In this document: piece by piece, positions 9,823 through 50,436 of the stretch | How the letters are laid out: every line of letters starts with the position of its first letter | How positions within the stretch are numbered: position 1 is the first letter of the stretch | NCBI GenBank assembly: GCA_964406895.1 | Contig: CAYOTK010000005.1 | Coordinates: forward strand, 7,484 to 71,483 | Direction: 5' to 3' | DNA from: an uncultured Candidatus Saccharibacteria bacterium | GTDB lineage: Bacteria > Patescibacteriota > Minisyncoccia > Phycocordibacterales > PALSA-1337 | Length of the DNA: 64,000 nt | Notes under the pieces: generated by a model | Told to the model about the DNA's origin: nothing | What the model saw: the letters and a program-made list of their open reading frames with translations, nothing else | Databases searched by the model: none | Program-made: the position numbers and the translations under genes

Positions 9823-9823
9823 C

Positions 9824-10867: not shown

Positions 10868-10878
10868 TTGAAACTATC

Positions 10879-17575: not shown

Positions 17576-17579
17576 ATTG

Positions 17580-18842: not shown

Positions 18843-18851
18843 GATGATATA

Positions 18852-21745: not shown

Positions 21746-21752
21746 GTTTTTA

Positions 21753-22574: not shown

Positions 22575-22587
22575 CATAAAATCTATA

Positions 22588-23229: not shown

Positions 23230-23333
23230 GCCACAATATTATCATATAATTAACTTTGAGTTTATGTTTGTGTATACCCCCTTGGATTTTGTATATACAT
23301 AATATATACTGAAAAATCATAATTAATAAAAAC

Positions 23334-33616: not shown

Positions 33617-33916
33617 TTAGGCCGTATCTCGGATGTCTCCATAGTCATCAATGTGTTTGACTTTCAATGTTTTAATTTTCTTAACCTTCTTTGGTATGTA
33701 TACTTTATCATAATTTGATCGAATTTTCCCTATAAGAAAGTCAATATCTTCGCGTTTGTATACTCGATAATTATTTAGAGGATGACGTAATGGTTTGAGC
33801 TTGCCAGACTTATCCCAATTACGCAGGGTAAGTGCAGTTACACCAAGCAAGGACGCTGCCTCCTTTATTGATATAAGTTCTTTGTGACTGTTCGACATGC
33901 AATGATTATATATCAT
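33617..33916 (-). CDS. Small HTH DNA-binding protein (MerR/excisionase-type HTH_17)
   Basis: ISIKEAASLLGVTALTLRNWDKSGKLKP…YRVYKREDIDF is an HTH_17-like motif. The gene is divergent from the giant protein gene. Confidence 0.55.
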   Translation of the reverse strand: MIYNHCMSNSHKELISIKEAASLLGVTALTLRNWDKSGKLKPLRHPLNNYRVYKREDIDFLIGKIRSNYDKVYIPKKVKKIKTLKVKHIDDYGDIRDTA

Positions 33917-34391: not shown

Positions 34392-34403
34392 GTGACTTGA
34401 TAT
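34392..34403 (+). promoter_or_regulatory. Extended -10 element (TGATATAAT) immediately upstream of the giant gene start
   Basis: cgtgacTTGATATAATttttatgaATG. The -10 ends ~14 nt before the ATG at 34415, with no obvious SD. Confidence 0.3.
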
Positions 34404-34414
34404 AATTTTTATGA

Positions 34415-37400
34415 ATGAAAGATACATTAATCATCGACGGAAAGGAATTCATCTCGTCTCGCCGAGCTGCCGAGATGACCAAGTACACCAACGATTATGT
34501 TGGACAACTTTGTCGTCAATCCAAAGTTGTTGCCAAGAGATTTGGGAGGGTATGGTTTATTGACAGAGATTCAATATTACAGTATAAAAAGAATCAGGAT
34601 AATTTACTTGGAATTTCAAATTTTGATGTTCGAGTTGATGACGCTCCAATTCTCAAAACTGTTGAGCCTGATAATTCGTTATTAGATACTTCTCATCAAT
34701 CAAAATTATCTGATCAAAATAATAAACCCCAGATAAAGAGTCAGAGTGACATAGTTTGGGACTTCAAACATTTTGAGGATGTTTCTCAAATTAAAGATTC
34801 AAATACTAAAAAGGAATTAGAAACTGCTTTAGTCAATATTAAGGGAAGAGCAAATAGGGCCATCGAAACTTTTGGAAAGTCATTACCGACAATTTTAGTT
34901 GCCATATTGCTTTCTGCTGGATCAGTTTTTTCTGCCTATTCATTTTCGTATCCAGATCAAGTTAATGACTTTATAGAAAAAAATCGTTCGAGAACAAGTA
35001 TAATTGTTTCTCAATATTCAGCGATCAAGAATCAATTTAATGTCAATGAAGGTCAGACAGCAAACATTATTGATTCTTCAATTAGTGATGTGAAGGATTT
35101 TGGTGTGTCTGCCTACATTGGATTCAGAGATTTTATTGTTTCGATATTTGGTACTAAGATAAAAACAAATAATAATCAATTTGTTAATACTCAAATTTAC
35201 ACCACACCAAACACTCCACCCATCACTACAATCATAAATCTTTCTAAAAAATCTTCATCTCAGACATCAGGCATAACAAATCAAAGTTTCAATTATTATG
35301 ATACTGGTTCGTATAGTTATCTGAATCAAAAAATTGATTCTTTGCGAGAAGATTTTAATAAATCTCTGTGGTTTGAAAAAGAACAAAACTACAGGATAGT
35401 AGAGAGTGTAAGTAAAACATCTCTGAATAGTAGTTCAAACAATCAAACTCAAGTTACGGATTTGTCTCAATTGACTGGTACTCTCGGAATAGGTCATGGT
35501 GGAACGGGTGTAGCGTCATTGTTATCGGGATTAATATATTCTGATGGTACTTCTGCTCTGAATTCGACTACATCTCCTTTGGTTGGTTCCATTTTTGCAT
35601 CAAGTACAATTGCTAATAATATATTCTTGGGTAATGTGGGCGTTGGCACAACTTCTCCTCTTTCTAAGCTTGATGTGTACGGAGATCTAATACTTTCTGG
35701 ATTGTCTCGTTATGTTAATTTTGGTGATGTTTCTGGTTCAAGTGGTTATGGTATTAGAGATAATGGAGGCATAATAGAATTTAAGAATACTGGCGGAACA
35801 TGGCTTGGTATTGGTTCTGGTGGAGGCGGTGGTTCTGATGGAAATTGGTCATATTTCAATGGTTCTGGAATAAGACTCGCCACAAGTTCCAATACTGTTT
35901 TGGTTGGCGCCAACTCTACGACTACATCGAGCAAGCTAGAAGTTATAGGTTCTGGATATTATTCTGGTAATTTAGGAATTGGCACAACTTCTCCTTGGAG
36001 AACATTATCTGTAAAAGGAAATTCTGATCTTGGTAATAATGCTCTGGCTGGCTCATTTACCGCCACATCAACAACCGCTTCTGTATTTCCTTATGCATCA
36101 TCTACTGCTGTAACAGTCTCTGGTAATCTTTATTTGAATTCTTATAACGGACCACTTCAGGCCAATAATGGTATTGTGTCTGCTACTACATCTATAGGGG
36201 TTGTTTACGGTGGAACGGGAGTCTCTACATTTGGTCAGGGTTGGATTTATTCTTCCGGTGGAACAACTGCTCTTGCGGCTTCAACGTCACCAACAGTGAA
36301 TTATTTGGTTTCTACTTCAACTACAGCAACTTCCACATTTGCTGGACCTATTTCTATAATTGGTTCTTCGGGACTAAATGTTCTTACTAATGGTCATGTC
36401 GGTATCGGCACATCAACGCCTGTCGGAAGTTTGTATGTTCCTGATCTGGTAACTCAAGCAATAGCATTTCCTTCGGGAGCAAATATTACATATCAGAGCG
36501 GATACAATGCTTATACAAACTTTAGTTCAGGCATAGGTATTGCTTCAGTGCCTTTTGCTACAGTAAACATTGATACTCCAAACAAGGTTGCATTATCTAA
36601 TATTTCGACGATTCAGTCCGGAGAATTAAACGTAAGATCAGGTGGCACTTTCGGTACAAAGACTGATTATACAACGGGAACTTTGCCAAGCGGAATATAT
36701 GTATCAGATATAAATAATGATGGAAAGAAAGATGTAATAACTGGTAACAATGGTAGTGACAACATATCTGTATTTCCTGGTAATGGAGATGGAACTCTTG
36801 GTTCTCGCACAAATTATTCTACTGGCACCGGATCTGGTCCGGCATTTGTGACAGCGGCTGATCTGAATGGTGACGGTTTCAATGATATTGTCGCAGCAGA
36901 TAATGCGTCAACAACAATGTCGGTCTTTATTAATAAAAAAGACGGAACATTTTTGGCGCACGTTGATTATATTTCAGGAACAACTCCTGGTGGAATAACA
37001 ATAAATGATTTCAATGGTGATGGAAAATCAGATATAGCTGTTTCAAATTATGGATCGAATACAATATCAGTTTTCATAAATAATGGCGACGGAACTTTTG
37101 CAAGTAAGGTGAATTATACAGTGGGTTCAGCGCCTACATATATAACTAGTGCAGATGTAAATGGCGATGGAAAGATCGATATTATATCTCCGAATTTCTC
37201 TTCCAATACTGTTTCTGTGCTCATGAATAATGGCAATGGCACATTTGCTACAAAGGTTGATTATGTAACAGCTGCCGGCCCGCAAACATCTGATGTCGGA
37301 GATGTAAATGGTGATGGAAAACCAGATATTGTAGTAGGAAATTACACTGGAAATAGCGCCTCTGTATTTCTAAACAACGGTAACGGTACTTTTGCTGCTA

Positions 37401-40400
37401 AGGTTGATTACACATTAGGTATTAACCCCGTTGATCTTCATCTCGCAGATTTTTCTGGTGATGGTAAACCTGACATTGCCGTTGTGAATTATACTGATAG
37501 TACTGTTTCTGTACTCATAAATAATGGCGACGGAACTTTTGCAAGTAAGGTGGATTATTCTACGAATACAGGACCATCTGCTGTTGCGATTGGAGATCTA
37601 AATAGAGATGGTGCCCCTGATATTGTTGTCGCTGACACGGACATAAACAAGGTTTCAGTTTTGTTAAATCAAACAAGTTCACTCTTGTATGCTCAAGCAA
37701 GTACAAATCGTGTTGCGATTGGTACTTCTACACCATACTCCAAATTCTCTGTATGGGGTACAGGAACCGGAACAAATAGATTGTTTGATCTTGTAAATTC
37801 TGCTTCAACAACGATTGCTTCATTCCTTGAAAATGGCACAGGTTATCTCCTTGGAAATATCGGAGTTGGTACTACATCTCCATATTCCAAATTAGCAATT
37901 ACAAATTCTTCTGCATCACAACCAGCTTTGAGTATTTATGGTTTCAATTCACAAACATCTCCTTTGATGCTTGTGGCTTCGACTACGGGTTCAGCTACAT
38001 CAACAGCATTTATTATTGATAATAATGGCAAGGTTGGTGTTGGCACATCATCACCTTATGTTCAATTGAGTGTGGCTGGTATTGGAGCATTCGATAGCTT
38101 GAATATAAACAGTAATGCTACTTCAACTTTTGTAGGAGGTATTCAGGCTAAGGCTCTAAACATAATAAGCACAACAGCAAGTTCAACGTTTGGAAATGGA
38201 ATAAGTTTGAGTAATGGTTGTTATGCAATAAATGGAACTTGTATTGGTGCTGGAACAATTGATGGTGCTGGGCTTGCAAACAAGTTAGCATTTTGGTCTG
38301 GAGCTTCTACAATCTCTTATAACAACAATCTTTCTTGGTTGAATTCTAGTAGTAGATTTGGAATCGGAACAAGTACACCGAATTGGGATTTGCAAGTCGC
38401 TTCGTCGAGTGGGGCTACAATAGCACTTACAGATACTTCTGCTTCAGCAAATACAAAACATTGGACGCTATCTTCTTTGGGTGGTAATTTCTATCTCTCT
38501 ACAAGCTCTGATTCTCTCAGTGCAAGTTCTAATTATATGTGGTTCGATACCAATAATTATGGTACATATTTGGGCAAGGATGCGGGTCGATTTAATTCAA
38601 TTGTTCCTGATTACGCTCAATACAATACTTTTGTTGGTTATGCTTCTGGACACGGCCCAAGCAGTTGGATTTCTGATAATAATACCGGTGTCGGTGCCTT
38701 GTCTCTGTACTCAGCTACAACTGGATATGACAATACTGCAATTGGTTATATGGCTTTGTATAACAATGTCGATGGTGATCAAAATATTGTGATTGGTAGT
38801 AATACTGGCACGAACATAGTAAATGGAAGTAGAAACATTATTATTGGTAGTAATATTGATGCCCCGTCTGATAATGGTTCTCTTTTGAATATAGGTAATA
38901 TTATTTATGGTAACAATATAGACGGATCATTAAGTACAATTTCTTCAGGTAATATTGGTATTGGTACAACTTCACCTGGAGCAAGATTCTCGATTAGTGG
39001 TGCTTCTGGAGGTTCGGTGCCGTTATTTGCAATTTCTTCTTCAACTGCTGGTTTTGCAACTTCAACATCTTTGATTGTGGATGCAAACGGCAAAGTCGGC
39101 ATTGGCACAACCACTCCATATACTCAGCTATCAGTAGCGGGAAATATTGCAGCAACAGGTCTAACATTGTCAGGAATAACTGGCTCAACACAATGTTTGA
39201 GAGTTAACGCTTCAGGAATTGTTTCTGGAACAGGTGCAGATTGTGGCACTTCTTCTGGTGCATCGTATGATTGGTTACAACAAACAAATACATTTGGTGT
39301 TAATTCTCTAACCCCAACTACAACAATACCAATATGGATCAAATCAACCGCCACATCAACATTTGCGGGTGGCATAGAATCATGGGACAAGATCGGCGCT
39401 CCATACTTCAATGCAACATCATCAACGGCTACCTCTACGTTTAATGGAGGTTTGATCGCTGCAAACGTAGGCAATTCATACGGTTTGTATGCTTTGTCTA
39501 GTACTGGTTATGTCGGTATTGGTACCAACTCACCATTTTATCCATTGTCAGTCATAACAAATGCCGACAACCTTGGTTTGCAGATAAGAAGAAATTCAGG
39601 TTCGACCAATACAACCAATGAAATTGGTTTCAGAGTGGCAAGTACAGAAGGATCAAATCTTGCAGGAATTAGATCTACTAGAGTTGATGCTGGCGCAGGT
39701 CATAGTCTTTCTTTCTTCACAAACCCTTCTGGCAATACACCAACAATAAGAATGACTCTTGCAAGTACTGGTGAAGTGGGTGTGGGTTCAACTACTCCTT
39801 GGGCCAGATTGTCTGTTAATGGTTCAAATGGCGGAACTACACCTTTGTTTGTGGTTGCATCTTCAACATCTGCCTATGCAACATCAACAGTGTTTATGAT
39901 TGATCAAAATGGTCAGGTTGGTATAGGTTCTAGTTCACCTATGTCTGTTTTCGGTATAGTTTCTCCTTACAAAGCTAATGTATCATTTGGAAATGGAACT
40001 GTTACAGGATATACCGGTATCGATAATGTTGATTCTGCTATAGATCTTGGAACATATTCCGCTCATCCTGTAAGGCTTGAAACAAGTGGTGTTGAAAGAT
40101 TGAGAGTATTATCGACAGGAAATATTGGTGTGGGTACAACATCTCCTTGGACTAATTTTGCTATTTCGGGATCAGCAGCACAATCTACTCCAATATTCGC
40201 CATCTCTACATCAACTGCTGGTTTTGCAACTTCCACCGCTTTCATTATCGACTCAAACGGCAAAGTTGGTATTGGCACAACCACTCCATATACTCAGCTA
40301 TCAGTAGCAGGAAATATTGCAGCAACAGGTCTAACATTGTCAGGAATTACAGGATCAACTCAATGTTTGAGAGTTGATGCCTCCGGAATTGTTTCTGGAA

Positions 40401-42589
40401 CAGGCGCAGATTGTGGCACTTCTTCTGGTGCGGCATACGATTGGCTACAACAATCAAACACATTTTCTGTTAATTCTCTAACCCCAACTACAACAATACC
40501 AATATGGATCAAATCAACCGCCACATCAACATTTGCGGGTGGTATTGAGTCGTGGGACAAGATTGGAGCGCCGTATTTCAATGCTACGTCCTCGACGGCA
40601 ACTTCTACATTTAATGGAGGGTTGAGGGTTGGAACAGGCGTTAATGGTTTATTTGCGTTCCAGAATGGATTTGTTTCTGTTGGAACAAGTTCTACTAACG
40701 CTGTATTTTCTATTCATTCTAATACAAGCAGTCAAGCGCCTCTATTTATGATTGCTTCTTCAACAAACGGCGCCGCAACGACGACCGCCTTCTTTGTTGC
40801 TGCAAATGGTACGATTGGTGTCGGAACTGCTCCAGTAGCTGGCTTTCAAATGAATATTACAGGAGCTTCAAGAGCAGGACAGGTTTTCGCTACAAGTCAG
40901 ATGAGTTCTCCAAACTATCTTTTAACTAATCCAGGCACTGTAAATAGTTATGCCTCTATGAATGGCGGCATATATTCTACAACCAATGGCGGTATTTATC
41001 CTTTCAACAATACGATGAACCTTATTATTTCCCCTCAGACTGGTGGTGGCACACCGAGGGATATAGTATTTGCCGTTGGTTCGACAACTGTTTCTACGGT
41101 GGTTATACGAGGTTCATCATATAACGTGGGTATTGGTACGACATCTCCATATGCCAAACTTTCAGTTATTGGTTCTACTGCCGCCACAACTACATTCGCT
41201 GTCTATGGTTTCAATTCTCAAACAGCACCGCTTGTGTTGGTTGCTTCGACAACAGGATCAGCTACATCTACAGCATTTATTATCGATAATAATGGTCAGG
41301 CAGGTATCGGCACAAGTACACCATGGAGAACACTGTCTTTGACTGGCACAGCAGCAATGCCAGGACTTACAGTGGCAGGCGCTTCCGGCTCAGCTGTCTG
41401 TCTTGCTGCTGGCGGTGAATTGCAAGTCAATTCCGGAGCGCAAACATGTACAGTTTCTTCAGCCAAATTTAAGCATGATATAGAGTCACAGATATCCGGT
41501 CTAGATACAATAAGAGCCTTGAGACCGGTATCATTTAAATACAACAATGATTCTTCAGGATCTGAGAGATTGGGTTTGATAGCAGAAGAAGTAAACAAAG
41601 TAGATCCAAGATTGATATTTACGGGTAACGATAACGAACCACGAGGTGTACGTTATGAAGATTTGACTTCAGTTCTTACAAGAGCTGTTCAGGAACTAGA
41701 TACAAAGGTTGATGATAATGCTTCCACAACTCTTGATTTCATGAAGTCTTCGAAGTTAAGTGTAGATTCTTCTTTGAATAAATTTACAGAGTATGACAAT
41801 CAATTTACAGATATAACTAAACAAATATCAGAGATGAATATTAGGATTTCAGATATTGCTTCTAGCACCTCAACAATTGCAAGCACAACGATAGATGCAA
41901 TATCTCATGATCAATCATTCATAGAAGTTATAGCAAATAAGGTCAAAGAATATATCGCTTCAGCTGGTGAATGGGTTGTATCTAAGATTTCTTCGGTCCT
42001 CGCTGTATTCGATAGGGTAGAAACCAAGACCGCAGCAGTAAGCAATGGTATAGAAATGACAGATAGTTCAACCAAAGAAGTTTGGTGTGTGAGAATACAG
42101 AATGGCGATTGGAATAAATTGCGTGGTAAATGCGGTGATGTAACCAGTGAAATTAAACCAGAAGTAACACCAGTACTAAATAATATAAATATAATAAACA
42201 CTGAGACAGCAACAACTACAATTGTTACAAATCCAGATAATGCTTCTACAACACCTGTTTCATCTTCAACAAGTACAGACGAGACGACAAATCAAGTAAA
42301 TCAGATTAATACCAACGAATCCACAACAACACAAAATACCACACCTACAACCCAAAAAGATGAAAGTGCCTCATCAAACAAGACTGAGAATCAAGCTCCT
42401 GTAACAACCCCGCAACCAGTTGAAAATGTTACAACAGCAAAAACAGAAACAGTTACGACACCAGATCCATCTACAGCAAGTTCTGGAACTGTTTCTGGTG
42501 GTAGTAATACCGAGACGGTGAATAGTTCAGGTAGTACGTCCTCTTTGAGTGGTAGTGTTTCGTCTGATTCGGGATCAGTAAATCCATAA
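34415..42589 (+). CDS. Giant (2724 aa) surface fibre protein with six regions (N to C): an HTH-like cytoplasmic N-terminus, a single TM helix, an FG-GAP/VCBS beta-propeller, long GIGTTSP-type fibre repeats, a peptidase S74 intramolecular-chaperone domain and a Ser/Thr-rich tail
   Basis: It is one uninterrupted ORF. The TM helix is LPTILVAILLSAGSVFSAYSF (~34880-34945). Eight or more repeats of D-[IV]-N-x-DG-x-x-D-[IV]…N-x-[IV]-S-V-[FL]-x-N-x-G-[DN]-G-T-F lie at ~36640-37680. SSAKFKHDIESQISGLDTIRALRPVSFKYNNDSSGSERLGLIAEEV lies at ~41455-41710. Confidence 0.8.
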   Translation: MKDTLIIDGKEFISSRRAAEMTKYTNDYVGQLCRQSKVVAKRFGRVWFIDRDSILQYKKNQDNLLGISNFDVRVDDAPILKTVEPDNSLLDTSHQSKLSDQNNKPQIKSQSDIVWDFKHFEDVSQIKDSNTKKELETALVNIKGRANRAIETFGKSLPTILVAILLSAGSVFSAYSFSYPDQVNDFIEKNRSRTSIIVSQYSAIKNQFNVNEGQTANIIDSSISDVKDFGVSAYIGFRDFIVSIFGTKIKTNNNQFVNTQIYTTPNTPPITTIINLSKKSSSQTSGITNQSFNYYDTGSYSYLNQKIDSLREDFNKSLWFEKEQNYRIVESVSKTSLNSSSNNQTQVTDLSQLTGTLGIGHGGTGVASLLSGLIYSDGTSALNSTTSPLVGSIFASSTIANNIFLGNVGVGTTSPLSKLDVYGDLILSGLSRYVNFGDVSGSSGYGIRDNGGIIEFKNTGGTWLGIGSGGGGGSDGNWSYFNGSGIRLATSSNTVLVGANSTTTSSKLEVIGSGYYSGNLGIGTTSPWRTLSVKGNSDLGNNALAGSFTATSTTASVFPYASSTAVTVSGNLYLNSYNGPLQANNGIVSATTSIGVVYGGTGVSTFGQGWIYSSGGTTALAASTSPTVNYLVSTSTTATSTFAGPISIIGSSGLNVLTNGHVGIGTSTPVGSLYVPDLVTQAIAFPSGANITYQSGYNAYTNFSSGIGIASVPFATVNIDTPNKVALSNISTIQSGELNVRSGGTFGTKTDYTTGTLPSGIYVSDINNDGKKDVITGNNGSDNISVFPGNGDGTLGSRTNYSTGTGSGPAFVTAADLNGDGFNDIVAADNASTTMSVFINKKDGTFLAHVDYISGTTPGGITINDFNGDGKSDIAVSNYGSNTISVFINNGDGTFASKVNYTVGSAPTYITSADVNGDGKIDIISPNFSSNTVSVLMNNGNGTFATKVDYVTAAGPQTSDVGDVNGDGKPDIVVGNYTGNSASVFLNNGNGTFAAKVDYTLGINPVDLHLADFSGDGKPDIAVVNYTDSTVSVLINNGDGTFASKVDYSTNTGPSAVAIGDLNRDGAPDIVVADTDINKVSVLLNQTSSLLYAQASTNRVAIGTSTPYSKFSVWGTGTGTNRLFDLVNSASTTIASFLENGTGYLLGNIGVGTTSPYSKLAITNSSASQPALSIYGFNSQTSPLMLVASTTGSATSTAFIIDNNGKVGVGTSSPYVQLSVAGIGAFDSLNINSNATSTFVGGIQAKALNIISTTASSTFGNGISLSNGCYAINGTCIGAGTIDGAGLANKLAFWSGASTISYNNNLSWLNSSSRFGIGTSTPNWDLQVASSSGATIALTDTSASANTKHWTLSSLGGNFYLSTSSDSLSASSNYMWFDTNNYGTYLGKDAGRFNSIVPDYAQYNTFVGYASGHGPSSWISDNNTGVGALSLYSATTGYDNTAIGYMALYNNVDGDQNIVIGSNTGTNIVNGSRNIIIGSNIDAPSDNGSLLNIGNIIYGNNIDGSLSTISSGNIGIGTTSPGARFSISGASGGSVPLFAISSSTAGFATSTSLIVDANGKVGIGTTTPYTQLSVAGNIAATGLTLSGITGSTQCLRVNASGIVSGTGADCGTSSGASYDWLQQTNTFGVNSLTPTTTIPIWIKSTATSTFAGGIESWDKIGAPYFNATSSTATSTFNGGLIAANVGNSYGLYALSSTGYVGIGTNSPFYPLSVITNADNLGLQIRRNSGSTNTTNEIGFRVASTEGSNLAGIRSTRVDAGAGHSLSFFTNPSGNTPTIRMTLASTGEVGVGSTTPWARLSVNGSNGGTTPLFVVASSTSAYATSTVFMIDQNGQVGIGSSSPMSVFGIVSPYKANVSFGNGTVTGYTGIDNVDSAIDLGTYSAHPVRLETSGVERLRVLSTGNIGVGTTSPWTNFAISGSAAQSTPIFAISTSTAGFATSTAFIIDSNGKVGIGTTTPYTQLSVAGNIAATGLTLSGITGSTQCLRVDASGIVSGTGADCGTSSGAAYDWLQQSNTFSVNSLTPTTTIPIWIKSTATSTFAGGIESWDKIGAPYFNATSSTATSTFNGGLRVGTGVNGLFAFQNGFVSVGTSSTNAVFSIHSNTSSQAPLFMIASSTNGAATTTAFFVAANGTIGVGTAPVAGFQMNITGASRAGQVFATSQMSSPNYLLTNPGTVNSYASMNGGIYSTTNGGIYPFNNTMNLIISPQTGGGTPRDIVFAVGSTTVSTVVIRGSSYNVGIGTTSPYAKLSVIGSTAATTTFAVYGFNSQTAPLVLVASTTGSATSTAFIIDNNGQAGIGTSTPWRTLSLTGTAAMPGLTVAGASGSAVCLAAGGELQVNSGAQTCTVSSAKFKHDIESQISGLDTIRALRPVSFKYNNDSSGSERLGLIAEEVNKVDPRLIFTGNDNEPRGVRYEDLTSVLTRAVQELDTKVDDNASTTLDFMKSSKLSVDSSLNKFTEYDNQFTDITKQISEMNIRISDIASSTSTIASTTIDAISHDQSFIEVIANKVKEYIASAGEWVVSKISSVLAVFDRVETKTAAVSNGIEMTDSSTKEVWCVRIQNGDWNKLRGKCGDVTSEIKPEVTPVLNNINIINTETATTTIVTNPDNASTTPVSSSTSTDETTNQVNQINTNESTTTQNTTPTTQKDESASSNKTENQAPVTTPQPVENVTTAKTETVTTPDPSTASSGTVSGGSNTETVNSSGSTSSLSGSVSSDSGSVNP
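39041..39454. repeat. Internal 414-bp coding repeat, copy 1 (~95% identical to 40211-40624)
   Basis: It contains long identical runs, e.g. caaccactccatatactcagctatcagtagc and tctctaaccccaactacaacaataccaatatggatcaaatcaaccgccacatcaacatttgcgggtgg. Confidence 0.8.
40211..40624. repeat. Internal 414-bp coding repeat, copy 2
   Basis: Same as copy 1, offset 1170 bp and in frame. Confidence 0.8.
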
Positions 42590-42629
42590 TTAGCATGATG
42601 AATTATCAATTTAATTGTAATGAAAGCAT

Positions 42630-45600
42630 ATGAAAAAGATACAGAATAAAAATTTTGCGATGGTTGTAGGAATTGCTGTTTTGTTATTTGCTTTTATTAC
42701 AATTAGTTTTTGGGGAGTGATTGTTTCTCCTCAGTATTATCCAAATACTGCACAAGTTGTTTCGAATCCGACAACACTTACACCAGAAGAAATACAGAAA
42801 CAATTAAGTGATCTAGAAAATCAGATAAATCAAACGAATCAAGAATTGAATAGTACCACTCAAGAGGTAAGTTCTCTCGAGTCCAATCAAAAACTGACCA
42901 ATCAACCAGACGGCACCAATATTATTCACATAACAACTTATGGATCAGATTCTGGTGATGGGAGTTCTGCGTCGCCGATGGCTTCTATTGATAAAGCCAT
43001 TGCAAAATTAGATTCCGCAGGTATTCATGACGGAAGAATTATTGTTCATAATGGCACATACGTTCTCAAGAATTCTATAGAAATAAAACCCGCATCAGAT
43101 AATTCTAGGACCTTAACAATAGAAGCTGGTCAGGGTGAGGCTCCAGTACTTGACGGTTCGCAGGTTATTACAGCTCAGCCTTTGAGTGGTCAGGCAGGAA
43201 TTTATCTTATTTCGATTTCATATTCTGGCACGAATATGCCACAAATCTGGCATCAAAATCAAAGAATTAGATATGTGCCGGTTCAGAGTTTCGATGTCTT
43301 GAAAAGTACTGATTATGGCGCTTATCCGTATTCAGCGAATACAATCGCTATTCACCCAAAAGGCGGTGTTCTGTCAGATGGTTCTGATTTGAGAGGATCG
43401 GTTTTGGATTACGGTTTTATCATTACAAGAAGTAATGTTAAAGTCGACAAGATATCTTTTACTGGTTTTGCGAAAACTAGTTATTCTGCAGGAATTGTTG
43501 TCGGAGCAAATAACTATAGTCCCGCAGTAGATAATATTAATTTGTTAAATGTAATTGTCAGTAATTCTTATTCTGGAATATCGACTCTGAAAGGTACTAG
43601 TGTTAGAAAAGTAAATATAAATAATTGTGACATAAGAGATGTTGCCACAGGAATTAATGCGCACGGAGGAGATGTATCTATCACGTATTGTAAAATAATA
43701 AATGATGCCAGAGCCTCAAATCTATTTGCTTTCAAGCAGGTTGATGTTTATATGGGTGAGGCAGGAATAAACGTTCGAGATAGTTACAGTACGGCGGGGT
43801 GTGAATATAAATATAATGTTATTAAAGGTTTCAAATATGGCATAGCTTTACAGGCCACTGAAAATCAAACTAATGGTGGTGGATATGCAAAATATAGTAT
43901 AGAACATAATACGATTGTGCTTGCTCCGGACGACGTTATAAGTACCGGAAGTTCTATGGGAATTCAATTTTCAAGATATGTCGGAACATCTTGTGCAAAT
44001 TGTGGTCCTGATAAAGCTCAATTCAGATACAACATTGTTGATGGATTCACATATCCATGGAATGTAAACAAGAGTGGATCTGCATCTCAAACTCAAGCAA
44101 ACATCGATCAAAATGTTTTTTGGAATAGTTCCGCGAACAAATCAACCTATGAAAAAGATTTCAAAGATATTCCTTCTGACAAGGGCTCAGGAACAAATAT
44201 AGTTGGGGATCCAATGTTTGTTAATAAAAATTCTCAAGATTTCCGTGTCTTTTCTGGCGGTTCAGCCTTGAGCATCGTCGCATCCGCTGTGCCAGCAGGA
44301 GCGTTATCATCAGTGCCTGGTGGAGGAAATATAGAGCCGAATTTTAGTTTGGACATCCCGGTTATCGCTAATGTTCAAAATAAAGTTGGTAACTCATATG
44401 AAGTAATTGGTTCAACATTCAAGTTCAACATAACCGCATATGATCCAACTTCTGTAAAAAACACGAAAATTTCAATATCGTCTCCCAGCACAGAGACTGT
44501 AAATATTACTCATTCGTATGTCAATCAAGAAACAATTACATTACCAGACAGCTTGGTAACTTATACAATTACGATAGTTATAGATAATGGTACAAAGACT
44601 TCATCTCCTCAAACAATCACAGTTACAAAGAAATCCTCGACAGTATCTTATTCCGATAATTATGTGAGAACATCAAAATATGGTTTTGTGGTTTTTGCCA
44701 AAAATAGTCAAGATGCAGATCAATACATTTCTTATAGAAAAAAAGGTGACACCAATTGGACAAAGGGTTTTGATGATAGCCAATATTCTGGAGCTATATA
44801 TAGTGATGCAAGAAATTCTGGTTTGCAACCACTTATAGTTACAGGCGTTGAGCCAAATACAGACTATGAATACATGATTACAACCAAACAAGGAAATGAA
44901 TCGTCTTCTGTTTATACCGTCAACACTTCAGGAGAACCAAAGACTTATTATGTTTCCACGAATGGTGAAGATTCATTTGATCGTGGTCTTGGTGCATCGA
45001 ATGCTTTCAAGACTTTACAATATGCTGTAGATTTATCGTTACCTGGAGATACAATAAATATTTTAGCTGGAGTATATTCTGGCACAACAATAATGGTTCA
45101 TAGTGGAACTGTGAGCAATCATATTAGAATAACTGGTAATCCTGCAGGCGGAACAATTCTTGGTGGACAAAATACAGCCTTGTCAGCACTTTCTCTAGAA
45201 AAAGTTTCTTATGTGGACATTTCGAATTTGTCTATACAAGGAGTAGCCACTGCAGGAATTTCCTGTAATAAATGTTCAAATGTAAGTATTACAAATTCAT
45301 TCTTTGCCAATCAATATATAGGCTCGAGTCTAAACAAGACTGATGTGGCAATAATTCTGAGAGATAGTTCTGATATTGATATAAATCATAATGTTATCAG
45401 GAATTGGTGGTGGGGAGTTCAGGTTACAAATTCTCCAAGAACAAAAATAGTAAATAACACAATAGTTTCTACGGTTGATGGTTGTATCATTCTTGGTACA
45501 GGTTCTGTTGATTCGGAAATTTCATATAACAGTTTGAATTTCCCTATAAATACAACAATGATTGTATATGCATCACCACAAGATCGTTCAAGAATTAAAA

Positions 45601-48600
45601 TTGATTATAACAATTTGGCCTCGAATATAATGTCGACTTATAGGGGTGACCCTGATACGAATACTGATTATAAGAGCAATTATTCATATTTTAAGAGTTC
45701 ACGAGAATTAAGTTGGTATTATGATTCAGCGCAAAATGGCAAAGTATATACCTCTTTCTCGAAATGGAAGAATGATACGGGCTGGGATACCAATAGTATA
45801 GTTGCTGATCCGATGTGGGTAGATCCATTGAAAGATGATTTTCATGTTAAGACCGGAAGTCCAAACTTGCTTTCAAATGGAAAATATATCGGCGCAATGG
45901 GTCCGGGAAATAATACTCCCGAAATAATTATTGAAAATAATTCCGATACAATATATGTTTCAAATTCAGGTTCAGATACTTCAGGAGATGGTAGTTCGGA
46001 TAAACCATACAAAACTATTCAAAAGGCATTAGATAATGCCGAAGCGGGAAAGACAGTATTCATAAAGGCGGGAACATATGATGGCAGAAGATTAATTTTT
46101 AAGAATTCTGGTGTTTCAGGAAAACCAATTGTTATAGAAGGGGAGAAATCATCATCGGGAGAGAGATTGGTTACTTTGGATGGTGGAGAATCTATGACTG
46201 GTTGGGAAAATGCGCCAGAAATAGGTGATGGTGTATATAAGGTTGCAAATAAAGTTTCTCCTGTAAGTAATCTTATAAATAACTTACCATATTCTGTTGT
46301 GGTTGACGGGAAATATGCTGATCCTTTGAGAAGTAATAGTTATATGGACATAAGTACAGAATGGAAGAAATACATGAATATGGATATAAATGCCGAGGTT
46401 ACTACAGACAATCCCGAGCACGCTCAGTCTAATCAAGCCTTACTTGGAAAGGTTAGGTTTTGGGATGTAACCAAAGCGATATTCTATGCCACAAAAGATT
46501 ACACATATATAAGGCTTGCAGACAAATCAAATCCAAATAATCACACTATTAGGGGCTCGTTCTATATTCCTGGATATTGGTCTTATGATACTTTCGTTAT
46601 TCAAGACAAAAGCTACATAACAATTCGAGATATAAACTTTAGAACTTATACAAACGGTATTAGTATGAGAGGTGCGGGTTCACATCATATAAATATTACA
46701 AATAACAATATTCAGGCCTCAAAAATCGCTATCGAAATTCAGTCGGGGGCACATGATATTGATGTCTCAAATAATGAAATACCTTTTGCTCATTTCGGAA
46801 CTTCATTCGGAGCATGGATTGGCTCAGAATATACAACAGGTAATTTGAGATATTCATTGGATTTGAAACAAGCTATATATCAGTGGTATCACCATTGGAT
46901 ATTCAACGGTACAGGATTCACAGGTATCAGTGCTTCGGCTGACGCGGGTGATAATATCGATATTTATAATAACAAGCTATCACAGGGATTCATTGCTATT
47001 GATGTAACAACAATCAATCGACGAATAAATAATGTTGAGGTTTACGGTAATACAATATCTGGTTTTTCAAGTGGAGCAATTTACGCAAGAGGTGCGATAA
47101 TAAATCTACAGATTCATAACAACGTTATGAGCGATGTGAATTATGCCGTAAGAAACCATGAACTCAATATATCAGACCCAAGAAAGGTTTATATATACAA
47201 CAATTGGGTCATAAATCCTGAACATGTTGGTATGGGAATATTCTTCCATTATTTCTCAGGTCATCCAATTCCAGCAAATCCTCCCGAAATATATATTTAT
47301 CATAACAATCTTATTGGTGGCAGGAATGGATTCAATTTTGATGCATATGTAGGTGAATATAATGGCGCTAAGGGTGTGTATGTGCTCAATAATATAGTTT
47401 CGAGTGGTGATTATGACTTGTCGGGTGCCAATACTCCAGAAAAAGATTTCTTCGGGATTTTTGATTATAACTGGTTTGATAATATGCCTGAAGTATATAC
47501 AAAACGAAATTGGTTTGGTGCAAATAATTTGAAAAAATCTAATGGCGAATCTAAGATTATGACTGGAAATACACCCACAACATTTAGATTGCCGTCCAAT
47601 ATCAAGGCATATCAAGCAGGAATTGATCTTTCGAAAACTCAAAATATAAATGGCAAGACAATTGGTCCATTACCAGGAATGTCTGGTTGTTCGAATTCAA
47701 AACCAGACATGGGAGTTATTGGTTCCTGTAATGGCGGTGGCGTGATAATTATTCCTGTAAATAATATCTCTGCATATGATGGTAGATATACTATAAAGAA
47801 AGGAGAAGTTTTGAACGGTTCAATGTCTATCAATAGAGCAATTAATTCGGGAATAAAATTCTTGATAACAACGCAATCGTTCAGAGGTATTGTTGCTGTT
47901 AGAGATAATGGAACATTCACATATACACCAGAATCAAACTTTGTAGGAACTGATTATTTTAACTTTAAAGTTAATGATGGTGTTTCTGATTCTAATATCG
48001 CAACAATAAGAATTACTGTCGAGAATAATGACAATACGAACACGGGTGGAGGCGGAGGTAACACTGGTGGTAATGGAACATCCGGTGGTAACACAACAGG
48101 TGGAGGAAATAATAATGGAAATAATAGCAATTCAAATAATAATAAAATTGTGGTGCCGAAGACTGGAGATGATGTCAAAAACAAGGTTACTGAAGTCGTT
48201 AAGACTGTTGTGCCGGTCAAGACTCCTATAGCACCAAAGAATGTTGTATATCAAAATGAAAATCGCAAAACAGAGACTGTAGTTAATTCAACTGCAAAAA
48301 TTAAATCGACTCTTTCAATCGGTTCCAAGGGGGAAGAAGTAAAGGTTTTGCAGAGAGTACTTTCAAGAGAAAATCTATTGCCAGCAACTTTGAATACAGG
48401 TTATTATGGCACGCTCACGGAAGTTGCTGTGCAGAGATTGCAAAAGAAATACAATATTGTTACTACCGGTTCACCAAATACAACAGGCTTCGGTGTTGTG
48501 GGTAAAAAAACTCAGGATTTGGTAAATAAATTGAATTCCAAAATACCTACTCCGAGTTCAACTAGTGAACCACTTCTATTGCCTACAGGTGGATCTTCAT

Positions 48601-48875
48601 CAAGCAACACCACATCTTCTTCAGGTTCTGTGACAAGTAATTTGAAATTTGGTTCTAGGGGTGAAGAAGTAAAGATTCTCCAACAAGCTCTGGTGAAAGA
48701 GAAGTTGTTAGCACCAAATCTTACAACAGGATATTACGGAACTCTCACTCAGTCTGCAGTGCAGAAATTGCAGACAAAGTACAATGTTATTTCTTCAGGC
48801 AATCCTCAAACCACCGGATATGGCTCAGTAGGGCCAAAAACAAAAGATATAATAAACACAATATTGAAGAAGTGA
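42630..48875 (+). CDS. Giant (2081 aa) secreted/cell-wall-bound parallel beta-helix protein with two C-terminal peptidoglycan-binding (PG_binding_1) domains
   Basis: It has an N-terminal TM/signal segment and a coiled coil. Many beta-helix repeats are present (e.g. DKPYKTIQKALDNAEAGKTVFIKAGTY, NxxI…N). A Gly/Asn low-complexity linker lies at ~48040-48150. The PG-binding motif occurs twice: LSIGSKGEEVKVLQRVLSRENLL…GYYGTLTEVAVQRLQKKYNI and LKFGSRGEEVKILQQALVKEKLL…GYYGTLTQSAVQKLQTKYNV. Confidence 0.75.
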   Translation: MKKIQNKNFAMVVGIAVLLFAFITISFWGVIVSPQYYPNTAQVVSNPTTLTPEEIQKQLSDLENQINQTNQELNSTTQEVSSLESNQKLTNQPDGTNIIHITTYGSDSGDGSSASPMASIDKAIAKLDSAGIHDGRIIVHNGTYVLKNSIEIKPASDNSRTLTIEAGQGEAPVLDGSQVITAQPLSGQAGIYLISISYSGTNMPQIWHQNQRIRYVPVQSFDVLKSTDYGAYPYSANTIAIHPKGGVLSDGSDLRGSVLDYGFIITRSNVKVDKISFTGFAKTSYSAGIVVGANNYSPAVDNINLLNVIVSNSYSGISTLKGTSVRKVNINNCDIRDVATGINAHGGDVSITYCKIINDARASNLFAFKQVDVYMGEAGINVRDSYSTAGCEYKYNVIKGFKYGIALQATENQTNGGGYAKYSIEHNTIVLAPDDVISTGSSMGIQFSRYVGTSCANCGPDKAQFRYNIVDGFTYPWNVNKSGSASQTQANIDQNVFWNSSANKSTYEKDFKDIPSDKGSGTNIVGDPMFVNKNSQDFRVFSGGSALSIVASAVPAGALSSVPGGGNIEPNFSLDIPVIANVQNKVGNSYEVIGSTFKFNITAYDPTSVKNTKISISSPSTETVNITHSYVNQETITLPDSLVTYTITIVIDNGTKTSSPQTITVTKKSSTVSYSDNYVRTSKYGFVVFAKNSQDADQYISYRKKGDTNWTKGFDDSQYSGAIYSDARNSGLQPLIVTGVEPNTDYEYMITTKQGNESSSVYTVNTSGEPKTYYVSTNGEDSFDRGLGASNAFKTLQYAVDLSLPGDTINILAGVYSGTTIMVHSGTVSNHIRITGNPAGGTILGGQNTALSALSLEKVSYVDISNLSIQGVATAGISCNKCSNVSITNSFFANQYIGSSLNKTDVAIILRDSSDIDINHNVIRNWWWGVQVTNSPRTKIVNNTIVSTVDGCIILGTGSVDSEISYNSLNFPINTTMIVYASPQDRSRIKIDYNNLASNIMSTYRGDPDTNTDYKSNYSYFKSSRELSWYYDSAQNGKVYTSFSKWKNDTGWDTNSIVADPMWVDPLKDDFHVKTGSPNLLSNGKYIGAMGPGNNTPEIIIENNSDTIYVSNSGSDTSGDGSSDKPYKTIQKALDNAEAGKTVFIKAGTYDGRRLIFKNSGVSGKPIVIEGEKSSSGERLVTLDGGESMTGWENAPEIGDGVYKVANKVSPVSNLINNLPYSVVVDGKYADPLRSNSYMDISTEWKKYMNMDINAEVTTDNPEHAQSNQALLGKVRFWDVTKAIFYATKDYTYIRLADKSNPNNHTIRGSFYIPGYWSYDTFVIQDKSYITIRDINFRTYTNGISMRGAGSHHINITNNNIQASKIAIEIQSGAHDIDVSNNEIPFAHFGTSFGAWIGSEYTTGNLRYSLDLKQAIYQWYHHWIFNGTGFTGISASADAGDNIDIYNNKLSQGFIAIDVTTINRRINNVEVYGNTISGFSSGAIYARGAIINLQIHNNVMSDVNYAVRNHELNISDPRKVYIYNNWVINPEHVGMGIFFHYFSGHPIPANPPEIYIYHNNLIGGRNGFNFDAYVGEYNGAKGVYVLNNIVSSGDYDLSGANTPEKDFFGIFDYNWFDNMPEVYTKRNWFGANNLKKSNGESKIMTGNTPTTFRLPSNIKAYQAGIDLSKTQNINGKTIGPLPGMSGCSNSKPDMGVIGSCNGGGVIIIPVNNISAYDGRYTIKKGEVLNGSMSINRAINSGIKFLITTQSFRGIVAVRDNGTFTYTPESNFVGTDYFNFKVNDGVSDSNIATIRITVENNDNTNTGGGGGNTGGNGTSGGNTTGGGNNNGNNSNSNNNKIVVPKTGDDVKNKVTEVVKTVVPVKTPIAPKNVVYQNENRKTETVVNSTAKIKSTLSIGSKGEEVKVLQRVLSRENLLPATLNTGYYGTLTEVAVQRLQKKYNIVTTGSPNTTGFGVVGKKTQDLVNKLNSKIPTPSSTSEPLLLPTGGSSSSNTTSSSGSVTSNLKFGSRGEEVKILQQALVKEKLLAPNLTTGYYGTLTQSAVQKLQTKYNVISSGNPQTTGYGSVGPKTKDIINTILKK

Positions 48876-49059: not shown

Positions 49060-49311
49060 ATGTCAAAAAGACTTTTCGTAGGCAGTCTTGCCTGGGGTAC
49101 AACAGATGCAAGCTTGAAGAAACACTTCGAGCAAGCAGGACAGGTTGTATCTGCAACGGTCATCATGGACAAAATGTCCGGAAGATCTAAGGGTTTCGGT
49201 TTCGTTGAAATGTCAACAGAAGCTGAAGCACAAGCAGCCGTTGATAAGCTCAATGGTTCTGAATTAGATGGTCGCAAGATCGTCGTTTCAGAGGCTCGTC
49301 CAAAGCAATAA
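49060..49311 (+). CDS. RRM-domain RNA-binding protein (bacterial Rbp type)
   Basis: RNP2 is LFVGSL and RNP1 is KGFGFVEM. The protein is 83 aa. Confidence 0.8.
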   Translation: MSKRLFVGSLAWGTTDASLKKHFEQAGQVVSATVIMDKMSGRSKGFGFVEMSTEAEAQAAVDKLNGSELDGRKIVVSEARPKQ

Positions 49312-49337
49312 TTAACGGTTTTACCGTTGGTTAATAC

Positions 49338-49368
49338 AAAAAACGACTTCGCAAGAGGTCGTTTTTTG
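49338..49368 (+). terminator. Rho-independent terminator downstream of the RRM gene
   Basis: AACGAC-ttcgcaagag-GTCGTT stem followed by TTTTTT. Confidence 0.6.
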
Positions 49369-49400
49369 TAATTGTTTGGGATTTGAGATAAAATAATATC

Positions 49401-50300
49401 ATGACCCCCCAAACCCCCGAAACACCACAAACCCCACCATCCACTCAACCCAGAGAAGGTACTCCAGAACCTACAGTCACAAACATGGCACAATCTCAAT
49501 CTCCTGAAAAACCACAAAAAACACAAGAAGAACTAAGAGAAATATGGCAACAAAGAATACAAGATATACGTAAACGAGGGGAAGAAATGCTAGATGAATA
49601 TGAGAAAAAAGTAAAAGAAGGAGAATTCAAAGATAAACCAGGTGAAGAACCAGGAAGTGGTAATAAAAGAGATATAGAAGCACAAGCAGAAATCACTCAA
49701 GTAATTGAAAGAGGAGAAAGAATGAAGAATAAGCTAGATAGTAATGAAGAACTGCCTCAGGAATCACCAGATATATTACCATATCTCGGAAAACAATATG
49801 ATTTGGAATTATCTCTAGGTATGTTCGGCACCCCAGAACACGGATTCAAGGGTATATACATTAATCCAAGAGATCAAGACTACGAAACACTCAAGAAGGA
49901 CACTGACCCAAAAAAGTTTGGTGAATATACTCTAAACCCAGACATGCAAAACGTAGACTTCAAAAACATACCAGAAAACAAGATACACATAATCGACCTA
50001 CCACAATTCGCAGGAAAACCACGAGCTGAAGTTATTGAACACATCCTTAAAATGTACCCCAACCTCAAACTTCCAGGACTGGAATACTGGGAATGGTTAG
50101 GAAAAAACCCAACCAAAATCCCAAAAAAAATACAAGACACAACACTATGGTTCTACTTCCCAGGTTCCCTCGTTCGTAATTCCGGTGGCGATTGGTATGT
50201 TCCTTGTGCCTACTGGCGTGGTTCAAGTTGGAATCGTAGTGCGCATTGGCTTAGCGGTTCTTGGGATGCTGATTACCGTTTCGTCCTCCTCGAGATTTGA
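49401..50300 (+). CDS. Hypothetical protein with Pro/Thr/Gln-rich low-complexity N-terminus
   Basis: It is an ORF of 299 aa. The N-terminus is MTPQTPETPQTPPSTQPREGTPEPT…, followed by a charged coiled region and a Trp-rich C-terminus. No recognisable family. Confidence 0.4.
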   Translation: MTPQTPETPQTPPSTQPREGTPEPTVTNMAQSQSPEKPQKTQEELREIWQQRIQDIRKRGEEMLDEYEKKVKEGEFKDKPGEEPGSGNKRDIEAQAEITQVIERGERMKNKLDSNEELPQESPDILPYLGKQYDLELSLGMFGTPEHGFKGIYINPRDQDYETLKKDTDPKKFGEYTLNPDMQNVDFKNIPENKIHIIDLPQFAGKPRAEVIEHILKMYPNLKLPGLEYWEWLGKNPTKIPKKIQDTTLWFYFPGSLVRNSGGDWYVPCAYWRGSSWNRSAHWLSGSWDADYRFVLLEI

Positions 50301-50394
50301 TTCTTGCCCAGCCCGAAGGGCTGGTGATGTCTTCCTGCCTTTTTGATTCTTGAATTCTTGAACTTTGATCTGCGATTTGGTTTTTTTATTTGAA

Positions 50395-50436
50395 GGTCGA
50401 ACCTCCATGAGGACCGACCCTGATTTTGTTTTTTTA
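50395..50436 (+). terminator. Rho-independent terminator (nested GC stem + T-tract)
   Basis: GGTCG-aa-CCTC-cat-GAGG-ac-CGACC followed by ctgaTTTTgTTTTTTT. Confidence 0.5.

Follow-up and report, generated by a model that had tools for sequence, protein, structure and literature searches.

What a bacterium of the Patescibacteria, the Candidate Phyla Radiation (CPR), does with two adjacent giant genes for surface proteins, and whether the second of them codes for a carbohydrate-degrading enzyme or for a protein that recognises glycans, are the questions raised by the locus described here. The window, that is the whole stretch of 64,000 nucleotides that was analysed (contig CAYOTK010000005.1, assembly GCA_964406895.1, positions 7,484 to 71,483), contains an open reading frame (ORF) at 42630-48875 on the (+) strand, which starts with ATG and codes for a protein of 2081 amino acids (aa), hereafter the target; it is preceded, at a distance of 40 bp, by the ORF of a fibre protein of 2724 aa, located at 34415-42589 (+). 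Together the two genes cover 14,461 bp, i.e., 22.6% of the window, and the ORF list and translation reproduced the ORF, strand, length, gap and share of about 22% reported in the initial annotation, which had been made from the letters alone and which proposed that the pair forms an apparatus for the recognition and degradation of a host surface. Part of this proposal is retained: the target has the features of a giant exported surface protein with beta-helices of the enzyme type, and recognition is a reasonable role, whereas degradation is not supported. The explanation that we consider best, giving it about an even chance, is that the target is a membrane-anchored and wall-tethered glycan-binding protein, which is partnered with the fibre and works as a sugar-recognising adhesin more than as a degrading enzyme.

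The target had been described as containing a single, very long beta-helix; instead, three separate beta-helix domains, indicated as M1, M2 and M3 (Table 1), were found, with a pair of FN3-like domains between the first two, and each of the three helices begins with its own N-terminal cap motif (aa 98, 774 and 1109). The segment SDKPYKTIQKALDNAEAGKTVFIKAGTY, which had been quoted as an example of the repeats, does match DUF1565 (26.3 bits, cutoff 20.3), but it caps a helix at its N-terminus and is not a repeat; the M3 match to DUF1565 spans only positions 2-40 of the 257 of the profile, corresponding to the cap. Among the Pfam profiles, PG_binding_1 is clearly matched, whereas Beta_helix passes its cutoff only for M2 alone: on the whole target it scores 22.6 bits, below the cutoff of 25.9, while M2 scanned by itself barely exceeds the thresholds for both Beta_helix (26.5 bits, cutoff 25.9) and NosD (23.8 bits, cutoff 23.6), and M1 scanned by itself gave no Pfam match. 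The FN3-like region of the target has no significant Pfam match either, and two relatives, P0015 and P0016, match Pur_ac_phosph_N/fn3 at this region. The fold was modelled with AlphaFold on family alignments. The model of M3 (m351c1119447b) has a predicted local distance difference test (pLDDT) of 89.2 and a predicted template modelling score (pTM) of 0.92; the model of aa 91-1097 (me6155366b932; pLDDT 83.8, pTM 0.82) consists of a helix, two beta-sandwiches and a second helix, with M1 at model residues 1-470 and M2 at 682-1000. Both models show stacked short strands and all their top Foldseek matches are beta-helix proteins, the middle region matching tandem FN3 structures (E ~1e-6); M1 and M2 share 25% identity over 253 aa (E 4e-5), with caps that are 31-39% identical. 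As predicted by these models, M1, M2 and M3 have the fold of right-handed parallel beta-helices.

The origin of this arrangement became apparent from its relatives, whose retrieval depended on the type of search. Three word-indexed searches of 5.8 billion proteins, using as queries the full length, aa 90-1700 and a scaffold profile of the two families described below (B+A), returned only the target itself together with generic beta-helix giants or proteins that have the Cadherin/Big_9 module in common with it, and missed known family members; the Ig-like (Cadherin_5/Big_9) module was the source of all spurious matches. The profile itself required care, since a mixed MAFFT alignment of A, B and target sequences put the A proteins on M1 and another mixed alignment gave an M3-only profile; artificial B+A concatenates repaired it, yet the word-indexed search with the repaired profile still failed. 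When aa 491-1690 were searched with phmmer, which needs no word index, in a set of 1.84 billion cluster representatives, 3085 relatives were retrieved (E below 1e-30 for 137), and they divide into two families, A and B. The contrast between the two kinds of search, the first missing every true relative, is a practical warning. Members of family A are stand-alone proteins of ~600-650 aa (typically ~620), collinear end to end with M3 at 26-35% identity, as exemplified by P0020 (target residues 1104-1697 on residues 46-620 of 645, 34% identity); ~100 of the top 150 phmmer matches align in this way. Family B comprises proteins of ~1000-1060 aa (typically ~1040), which are collinear end to end with aa 91-1091 at 23-37% identity, as is P0016 (target residues 91-1091 on residues 35-1036 of 1042, 37% identity) and as are over 15 others. 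The target shares the cap, Asn-ladder and C-terminal motifs of both families, and M1 itself, when compared with family A by hhalign (probability 99.8%, E 1e-28), is by profile similarity a homologous helix of the same type. Since A proteins cover M3 and B proteins cover aa 91-1091, both end to end, the target is, as far as these alignments tell, an end-to-end fusion of B (M1, two FN3 domains and M2) and A (M3), followed by an Ig domain, a linker and two PG-binding domains. An orthologue, P0174 (2073 aa), shows the same architecture with 54% identity over 2022 aa, so that the fusion predates the strain level.

No curated Pfam or NCBIfam model covers A or B beyond the cap, and members of the two families are named in their sources only "hypothetical protein" or "right-handed parallel beta-helix repeat-containing protein". 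A related-locus search of GTDB representative genomes and metagenome contigs returned no relative of the target, and a degenerate FDYNWxGG DNA pattern retrieved ~22 A-family loci; the notion of A and B as frequent gene neighbours, as in a Rosetta-stone fusion, was dismissed, no true B gene being found beside A in these ~22 loci. Some variants of the architecture were also encountered. P0015 (contig L181; JAMDBV010000025.1 of the metagenome-assembled genome (MAG) GCA_023487965.1, from a related member of the Patescibacteria) is an unfused protein of 1432 aa with B, FN3 and PG_binding_1, which keeps the Tyr/Lys pair discussed below; it adjoins the same LOG and MFS genes as the target but is encoded on the other strand, and no fibre gene accompanies it; this locus may represent the pre-fusion state. 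In contig WBZP01013774.1 of GCA_009612975.1 (L188) the orthologue is broken into overlapping calls of 1276 and 1003 aa, probably because of a frameshift or an assembly error. Among other metagenome contigs, three A-family paralogues are found in tandem at 665-6849 of L148, and an A module lies inside a 2809-aa giant at 3-8429 of L163. Both family profiles match the solved structure 9rx2_A of the PDB, a "Parallel beta-helix repeat protein" of 717 aa (E 4e-18 and 7.6e-14), whose C-terminal "DPMFVDP..GDF" motif recurs where M1 and M2 end; a literature search for PDB 9rx2 found no paper.

The structural relatives of the modules are enzymes. Foldseek searches of the PDB with both models returned, tandem FN3 structures for the middle region aside, only carbohydrate-active beta-helix enzymes, i.e., GH120 XylC, BT_1002, GH136 lacto-N-biosidases, PL9, PL6, GH28, GH110 and phage capsule depolymerases, with TM-scores of ~0.3-0.45; XylC (3vst) was the top match, with E 5e-14 for M3 and 5e-12 for the B block. 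The A-family profile also matches XylC by sequence (E 3.2e-23, 85 bits, profile positions 32-400 on chain residues 2-400), which identifies the A family as a remote GH120 homologue. Profile matches of the PL9, PL6 and PsAly type (E 1e-10 to 1e-6) are confined to the cap. Stand-alone members of the two families occur in glycan loci: in large non-CPR genomes, the A protein P0028 has a GH141-like gene, a GH42 gene and a sugar transporter as neighbours, and the locus of the B protein P0163 contains sugar regulators in addition to heparinase II/III-like, GH88, BNR, GHL10 and GH42 genes, while P0016, the closest stand-alone B protein, is at the head of an exopolysaccharide (EPS) cluster with a Wzx flippase, an acetyltransferase and a GT4 enzyme. 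An enzymatic ancestry of the modules is likely, given the homology to XylC, the enzymes matched by the fold and the glycan loci of the stand-alone members. In GH120 the catalytic pair is formed by Asp382, the nucleophile, and Glu405, the acid/base, and Glu353, Lys358 and His360 are further residues of the site (PMC3507262). XylC Asp382 aligns to a variable column, which is occupied by Arg in the target, and the XylC loop His352-Ala361, carrying the other three residues, is an insertion absent from the A-family profile; the target is thus not a functional member of GH120. Glu405 falls just past the aligned region. A proposed equivalence of the invariant Tyr/Lys of family B with XylC Asp382/Glu405, based on a 7.6-bit HMMER domain, was discarded, because stronger alignments chain these residues to His327 and Tyr350.

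Whether the modules still work as enzymes was addressed by looking at the residues conserved among aligned family members; the positions were confirmed by an independent hmmalign alignment, in which the flanking motifs align cleanly. Several of these residues are replaced in the target (Table 1), i.e., Tyr385 and Lys408 in M1, Trp871 in M2 and four charged residues in M3, which further shows the change R1524N and the deletion of one conserved Asp. The replacements are shared by the orthologue P0174, which has N, Q and G at the positions equivalent to 385, 408 and 871, while the stand-alone CPR-like B proteins P0015 and P0016 retain Tyr, Lys and Trp. Positions 385 and 408 are 23 residues, that is one helix turn, apart, so that the two side chains would stack on the same face; a Tyr/Lys pair is the proven catalytic dyad of the beta-helix lyase PsAly (PMC6796002). 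No acidic pair or Ca-site motif was identified in the target. The replacement of these family-conserved polar residues leads us to favour recognition and adhesion over a depolymerase as the main role; for M1, and probably for M2, glycan binding is favoured, whereas M3 appears to be strongly constrained, either for binding or for an altered activity. The degradation proposed initially therefore finds no support for M1, where Tyr/Lys are replaced; in M3, which keeps invariant residues, it may still occur.

The two ends of the protein suggest how it is held at the cell surface. The hydrophobic segment at aa 9-33 agrees with the N-terminal anchor or signal that had been noticed before; its hydrophobic run is ~24 residues long and has no Ala-X-Ala site; in the stand-alone A and B relatives, by contrast, the cap is immediately preceded by a short signal peptide that looks cleavable, and for these reasons the segment is read as a membrane anchor, probably an uncleaved signal anchor. 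The coiled coil that had been placed after it is reduced to a short heptad stretch at aa ~52-85, which is gone in the 54%-identical orthologue P0174, where the region is 17% identical and 50% alignable. At the opposite end, the Gly/Asn linker and the twin PG_binding_1 domains were both found as described: the tail gives a Pfam match with two stretches (E 1.6e-16; 60.7 bits for the tail alone and 52.9 for the whole protein, cutoff 23) and sits at the far C-terminus behind a flexible tether of ~90 residues. Between M3 and this tether lies a Cadherin_5/Big_9 domain that the annotation had not listed (E 3.4e-10 and 4.2e-10 for the segment alone, 8.6e-9 and 6e-9 for the whole protein), on which the NCBIfam tandem-95 repeat also matches (E 6.6e-11), under its cutoff. 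Tethering to the organism's own wall is plausible and is the simplest reading, because the presence of MurB shows that the genome makes a wall of its own; it is nevertheless indistinguishable from binding to the peptidoglycan of a partner cell. PG_binding_1 tails recur on other CPR-like modular giants with Laminin_G_3, FN3, PKD or He_PIG domains, with or without A/B helices, and look like a general anchoring device in this group.

FG-GAP_3 repeats of the VCBS type occur seven times in the neighbouring fibre protein (E 8e-63), which also has, at aa 2348-2400, the Peptidase_S74 intramolecular-chaperone domain that phage tail fibres carry as well. The order of the fibre and target genes is the same in the strain contigs L083 and L001, which are identical across the junction; in the contig of the orthologue (L180), an S74 gene is followed, after a gap of 15 nt, by P0174, and its S74 region is 46% identical to that of the fibre (E 8e-61). 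The association of target and fibre suggested by the initial annotation is thus maintained next to a 54%-identical orthologue, and a functional linkage between the two proteins is supported. The fibre protein shows further peculiarities. Its first ~60 residues (window 34415-34900) resemble an excisionase/MerR-type helix-turn-helix, with no Pfam or NCBIfam match, and a hydrophobic segment follows at aa ~155-177, so that a giant extracellular fibre would here be joined to a domain of DNA-binding type located in the cytoplasm; no detectable similarity was found between this segment and the divergent MerR gene at 33617-33916. The gene also contains a 432-bp internal direct repeat (39024-39455 and 40194-40625, 88% identical), corresponding to a duplicated protein segment.

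On the transcription of the pair the indications are mixed. Co-transcription, as originally claimed, is plausible from the common strand, the 40-bp gap and the lack of a terminator-like hairpin in the gap at 42590-42629, the first strong intrinsic-terminator-like hairpin downstream being at 49335-49370 (+), with a 16-bp stem and a T-run, after the RRM gene at 49060-49311; on the other hand, the gap holds a -10-like box, and a separate transcription start may be located there. This box, TGTAAT (42616-42621), is separated from the ATG of the target by 8 nt, exactly as TATAAT (34401-34406) is from that of the fibre gene. A Shine-Dalgarno-like motif precedes only 1 of the 48 genes of the window, and not the target, whereas a hexamer matching TATAAT in at least 5 of 6 positions and ending 5-10 nt before the ATG is present in 20 of 48 genes, compared with 2 of 48 in each control window. 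TATAAT-like boxes stand also before genes that start 3 bp after the preceding stop, while the 15-nt junction of the orthologue has no such box at that spacing. Taken together, the boxes suggest widespread promoters of the leaderless type or, alternatively, a start signal other than Shine-Dalgarno.

A mechanism may be sketched on this basis. The observed hydrophobic segment would direct export through the Sec system and would probably retain the protein in the membrane, while the PG_binding_1 pair would attach it non-covalently to peptidoglycan, most simply that of its own wall. The three beta-helices would then be displayed between the two attachment points, with polysaccharide-binding clefts inherited from carbohydrate-active enzymes. 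With the residues of M1 (Tyr/Lys), M2 (Trp) and M3 (four charged ones) replaced, they would serve mainly glycan recognition and adhesion; if any residual or altered catalysis is left, it would reside in M3. The target would act jointly with its observed neighbour, the trimeric-fibre-like protein with VCBS/FG-GAP propeller and S74 chaperone, in contacting the surface of a partner or host cell.

Some points weigh against this explanation. M3 keeps W1192, Y1417 and R1508, which are invariant in the family (all 100%), and retains also H1510, Y1557, H1558, D1612 and D1666; moreover, it is the best conserved module with respect to the orthologue (69%, with M1 and M2 at 53-59% and the tail at 28-43%), and such constraint, together with the invariant residues, would also fit an enzymatic activity that has been kept or modified. 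That the replaced residues were catalytic is argued by analogy, the precedent for Tyr/Lys being that of PsAly. Furthermore, an anchor was preferred to a cleaved signal from sequence features only, the tail may bind the peptidoglycan of a partner cell instead of the own wall, and an epibiotic lifestyle is assumed from the phylum.

The same evidence has to be weighed for an active surface depolymerase, in which one module, most likely M3, would cut the capsule, EPS or wall glycan of the partner in the manner of a tailspike, giving access to the fibre or to the cell. The structural neighbours are all enzymes (GH120, BT_1002, GH136, PL9, PL6 and phage capsule depolymerases), family A is homologous to GH120, stand-alone relatives belong to glycan-catabolism loci, and M3, the best conserved module, has kept W1192, Y1417, R1508, H1510, Y1557, H1558 and D1612. 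The column of the GH120 nucleophile is variable, though, and the active-site loop is missing; M1 has lost both polar residues that are invariant in family B, M3 has lost E1152, E1357, R1367 and K1421, in the orthologue as well, and neither an acidic pair nor a Ca-site motif was recognised, so we regard this activity as possible but unlikely. The loss of conserved residues applies equally to a protein that would process the cell's own glycans, trimming, epimerising or measuring an exported polysaccharide at the wall as do AlgG, AlgL or PslG-type proteins. This role would fit the position of P0016 at the head of its Wzx/acetyltransferase/GT4 cluster, the glycan synthesis/export cluster at 8.3-25.6 kb of the window and a weak similarity of the B profile to the C5-epimerase AlgG (E ~0.09), but the latter cluster is 9 kb away with housekeeping genes in between (MurB, SecA, Obg, GatB), and the conserved neighbour of the target is the fibre and not a glycan-synthesis gene; we judge it improbable.

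A structural envelope protein of the S-layer type, whose beta-helix array would form a lattice held by the PG_binding_1 pair, would account for the wall-binding tail and for the very large size of the protein, and S-layer proteins that combine a beta-helix with interchangeable anchoring domains are indeed widespread, S-layer proteins having been identified also in Patescibacteria (bioRxiv 10.1101/2024.05.28.596244). An anchor in the membrane at the N-terminus and one in the wall at the C-terminus would be unusual for a lattice protein, though, the helices are homologous to enzyme families of catabolic loci, no evidence of lattice formation was found and most sister genomes have no related protein, which makes this role quite improbable. 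A prophage remnant, i.e., a tail fibre with a tailspike/endolysin module left in the chromosome, is very improbable. The S74 domain of the fibre, its weak tblastn matches to phage tail-fibre genes (29-38% identity), a fold-level match of M3 to a beta-helix protein of an uncultured phage (E 1.8e-11) and matches to PHROG "tail protein" and "endolysin" families recall such an origin; the PHROG matches, however, are confined to a helix cap and to the PG-binding domain, the fibre has none, a tblastn search with M3 against 50,697 phage genomes found no match, and the pair is surrounded by housekeeping genes (GatB, Obg, SecA, LOG, MFS, IF-2) with no gene for capsid, portal, terminase or integrase. 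Target and fibre are both membrane-anchored, and the locus is syntenic in related strains. Phage origin was rejected on the basis of the flanks, of PHROG matches limited to cap and tail and of the phage genomes devoid of M3 matches. A bolder view, which we find rather doubtful, sees in the pair a cellular counterpart of the phage receptor-binding apparatus, consisting of an S74-chaperoned trimeric fibre with a VCBS-type propeller and a tailspike-like protein with three helices, fixed between the membrane and the wall of an ultra-small bacterium; the enzyme-derived helices would have turned into specific glycan readers, of which M3 might also cut, and the pair, if this view is true, would represent a host-recognition and docking organelle of a Paceibacteria lineage.

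Table 1. Domains of the target protein and family-conserved residues replaced in it, with residue numbers and window coordinates.
Feature	Residues	Window coordinates	Strand	Evidence or conservation
N-terminal hydrophobic segment	aa 9-33	42654..42728	+	Kyte-Doolittle window up to 2.65; basic N-terminus before
Q/N-rich heptad stretch, possible short coiled coil	aa ~52-85	42783..42884	+	4-3 hydrophobic spacing by eye, weak heptad count
M1, first right-handed beta-helix (N-terminal helix of B family, GH120-like type)	aa 95-565	42912..44324	+	AlphaFold model, B-family collinearity
Two FN3/Ig-like beta-sandwiches	aa ~572-766	44343..44927	+	Model strands at residues 482-675, Foldseek
M2, second beta-helix (C-terminal helix of B family)	aa 770-1092	44937..45905	+	Pfam on segment, model residues 682-1000
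M3, third beta-helix (complete A-family protein)	aa 1105-1697	45942..47720	+	End-to-end alignment, model, Foldseek
Cadherin_5/Big_9 Ig-like domain	aa 1716-1797	47775..48020	+	Pfam
Gly/Asn-rich low-complexity linker	aa ~1799-1838	48024..48305 (linker + spacer)	+	Read from sequence
Lys/Val/Thr-rich spacer	aa 1839-1892	48024..48305 (linker + spacer)	+	Read from sequence
PG_binding_1 domain 1	aa ~1893-1960	48306..48509	+	Best PF01471 stretch aa 1901-1950; weak SleB N-terminus similarity
PG_binding_1 domain 2	aa ~2004-2075	48639..48854	+	Second PF01471 stretch; PHROG endolysin family match aa 2005-2057, E 4e-10
M1, replaced residue	Y385S			100% conserved (25 B members)
M1, replaced residue	K408Q			100% conserved (25 B members)
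M2, replaced residue	W871G			92% conserved
M3, replaced residue	E1152G			98% conserved
M3, replaced residue	K1421H			95% conserved
M3, replaced residue	E1357T			71% conserved
M3, replaced residue	R1367A			71% conserved

The gene pair is flanked by genes coding for MurB, SecA, Obg, GatB, LOG, MFS, a short IF-2, DUF4446 and GyrA and by two tRNAs, and the window is part of a cellular chromosome, not of a phage. Its GyrA is 80-84% identical to that of MAGs labelled Candidatus Taylorbacteria, Paceibacterota or Parcubacteria, indicating a Taylorbacteria-like Patescibacterium as host. Upstream, 9 kb from the fibre gene, lies a large cluster for synthesis and export of surface glycans (8297-25568), which comprises three GT1 enzymes, two methyltransferases, a GT2+GT11 fucosyltransferase fusion, an epimerase, a GT10 fucosyltransferase, an ABC_tran + ABC2_membrane exporter, a GT2-GtrA gene and a Wzy_C-TPR protein. 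Downstream, a small gene for an RRM_1-type RNA-binding protein (49060-49311, 83 aa), which falls under the length cutoff of the ORF list, lies between the target and the terminator, and is followed by a 299-aa ORF (49401-50300) with a Pro/Thr-rich N-terminus and no Pfam or PHROG match.

Comparison with closely related strains revealed some variability of the locus. A protein identical to the target is present on the Logan contig L001, and a strain variant of 2079 aa, P0001, is coded on the JGI contig L083. The latter is 100% identical to the window over 15.4 kb, covering the whole fibre gene and codons 1-1804 of the target; all of its 21 mismatches are located in the linker and PG-binding tail of the target (window 48040-48760, ~2.9% divergence), where 16 synonymous and 4 non-synonymous codons and an indel of two codons were counted, while downstream of the target the identity is 99.4%. 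The indel falls in the region of linker and spacer, at the border where the fully identical part gives way to the diverged one. A breakpoint at the Gly/Asn linker suggests either a recombination that swapped the wall-binding tail or an assembly chimera. In the same contig, a segment of 1.1 kb, within 49315-50420 and including the terminator and the 299-aa ORF, is replaced by 80 nt.

The interest of the locus lies in that the recognition of partner cells by Patescibacteria outside the cultivated Saccharibacteria is little understood, and a concrete candidate, a conserved gene pair, is available here. The modules trace to two large uncharacterised families resembling carbohydrate enzymes, with thousands of cluster representatives, and the lineage-specific loss of residues conserved in these families suggests the conversion of an enzyme into a binder.

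Among known proteins, XylC (3vst) has the same right-handed parallel beta-helix with N-terminal cap as the target modules, but it is a soluble single-domain enzyme, the TM-score is only ~0.44 and its catalytic machinery is not matched in the target. Fold and cap are likewise shared with the PL9 enzymes Pel9A (1ru4) and rhamnogalacturonan lyase (5olq), with PL6 and with PsAly (6kfn); the Tyr184/Lys221 pair of PsAly can be likened, by analogy, to the Tyr/Lys that family B carries one coil apart, a pair that the target does not have, nor was the Ca-binding acidic cluster of beta-helix lyases identified in it. The stand-alone A and B proteins are without a wall tail, keep Tyr/Lys (B) and E/E/R/K (A) and belong to glycan-catabolism or EPS loci, whereas the target is found beside a fibre gene. 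Phage tailspikes associated with S74 fibres resemble the locus in the beta-helix module next to the fibre, a combination by which a cell surface is reached, and in the fold-level matches to phage proteins; they differ in that the target is chromosomal, lies among housekeeping genes and is membrane-anchored like the fibre, and no particle-binding N-terminal domain was detected in it. Other giants with PG_binding_1 tails, namely P0015, P0043, P0123 and P0005, are similar to the target as exported proteins of more than 1400 aa with lectin-like modules and C-terminal PG_binding_1 repeats; their modules are sets of Laminin_G_3, PKD and He_PIG, none of them combines B with A, and no fibre gene lies beside them on their short contigs.

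From the functional point of view, the nearest analogue is a pair of adjacent envelope genes of Saccharibacteria, SEML1_0890 (FN3) and SEML1_0891 (VCBS), which transposon sequencing (Tn-seq) identified as essential for epibiotic growth and for which targeting of host glycans, for adhesion or degradation, was proposed (PMC10633639). Compared by their description, the two loci share the adjacency of the genes, VCBS-type repeats in one product and FN3 domains in the other; SEML1_0890/0891 belong to a different class of Patescibacteria, and the passage that describes them mentions no beta-helix or PG_binding_1 (PMC10633639). By this analogy, a role of the target in glycan recognition appears reasonable. 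The parts of the target are known domain types, and it is their arrangement that is new, joining three helices derived from two families to a wall tail, with family-conserved residues lost and a conserved S74 fibre as partner; on present evidence, the locus is unusual in how it arranges these parts and does not amount to a new kind of system.

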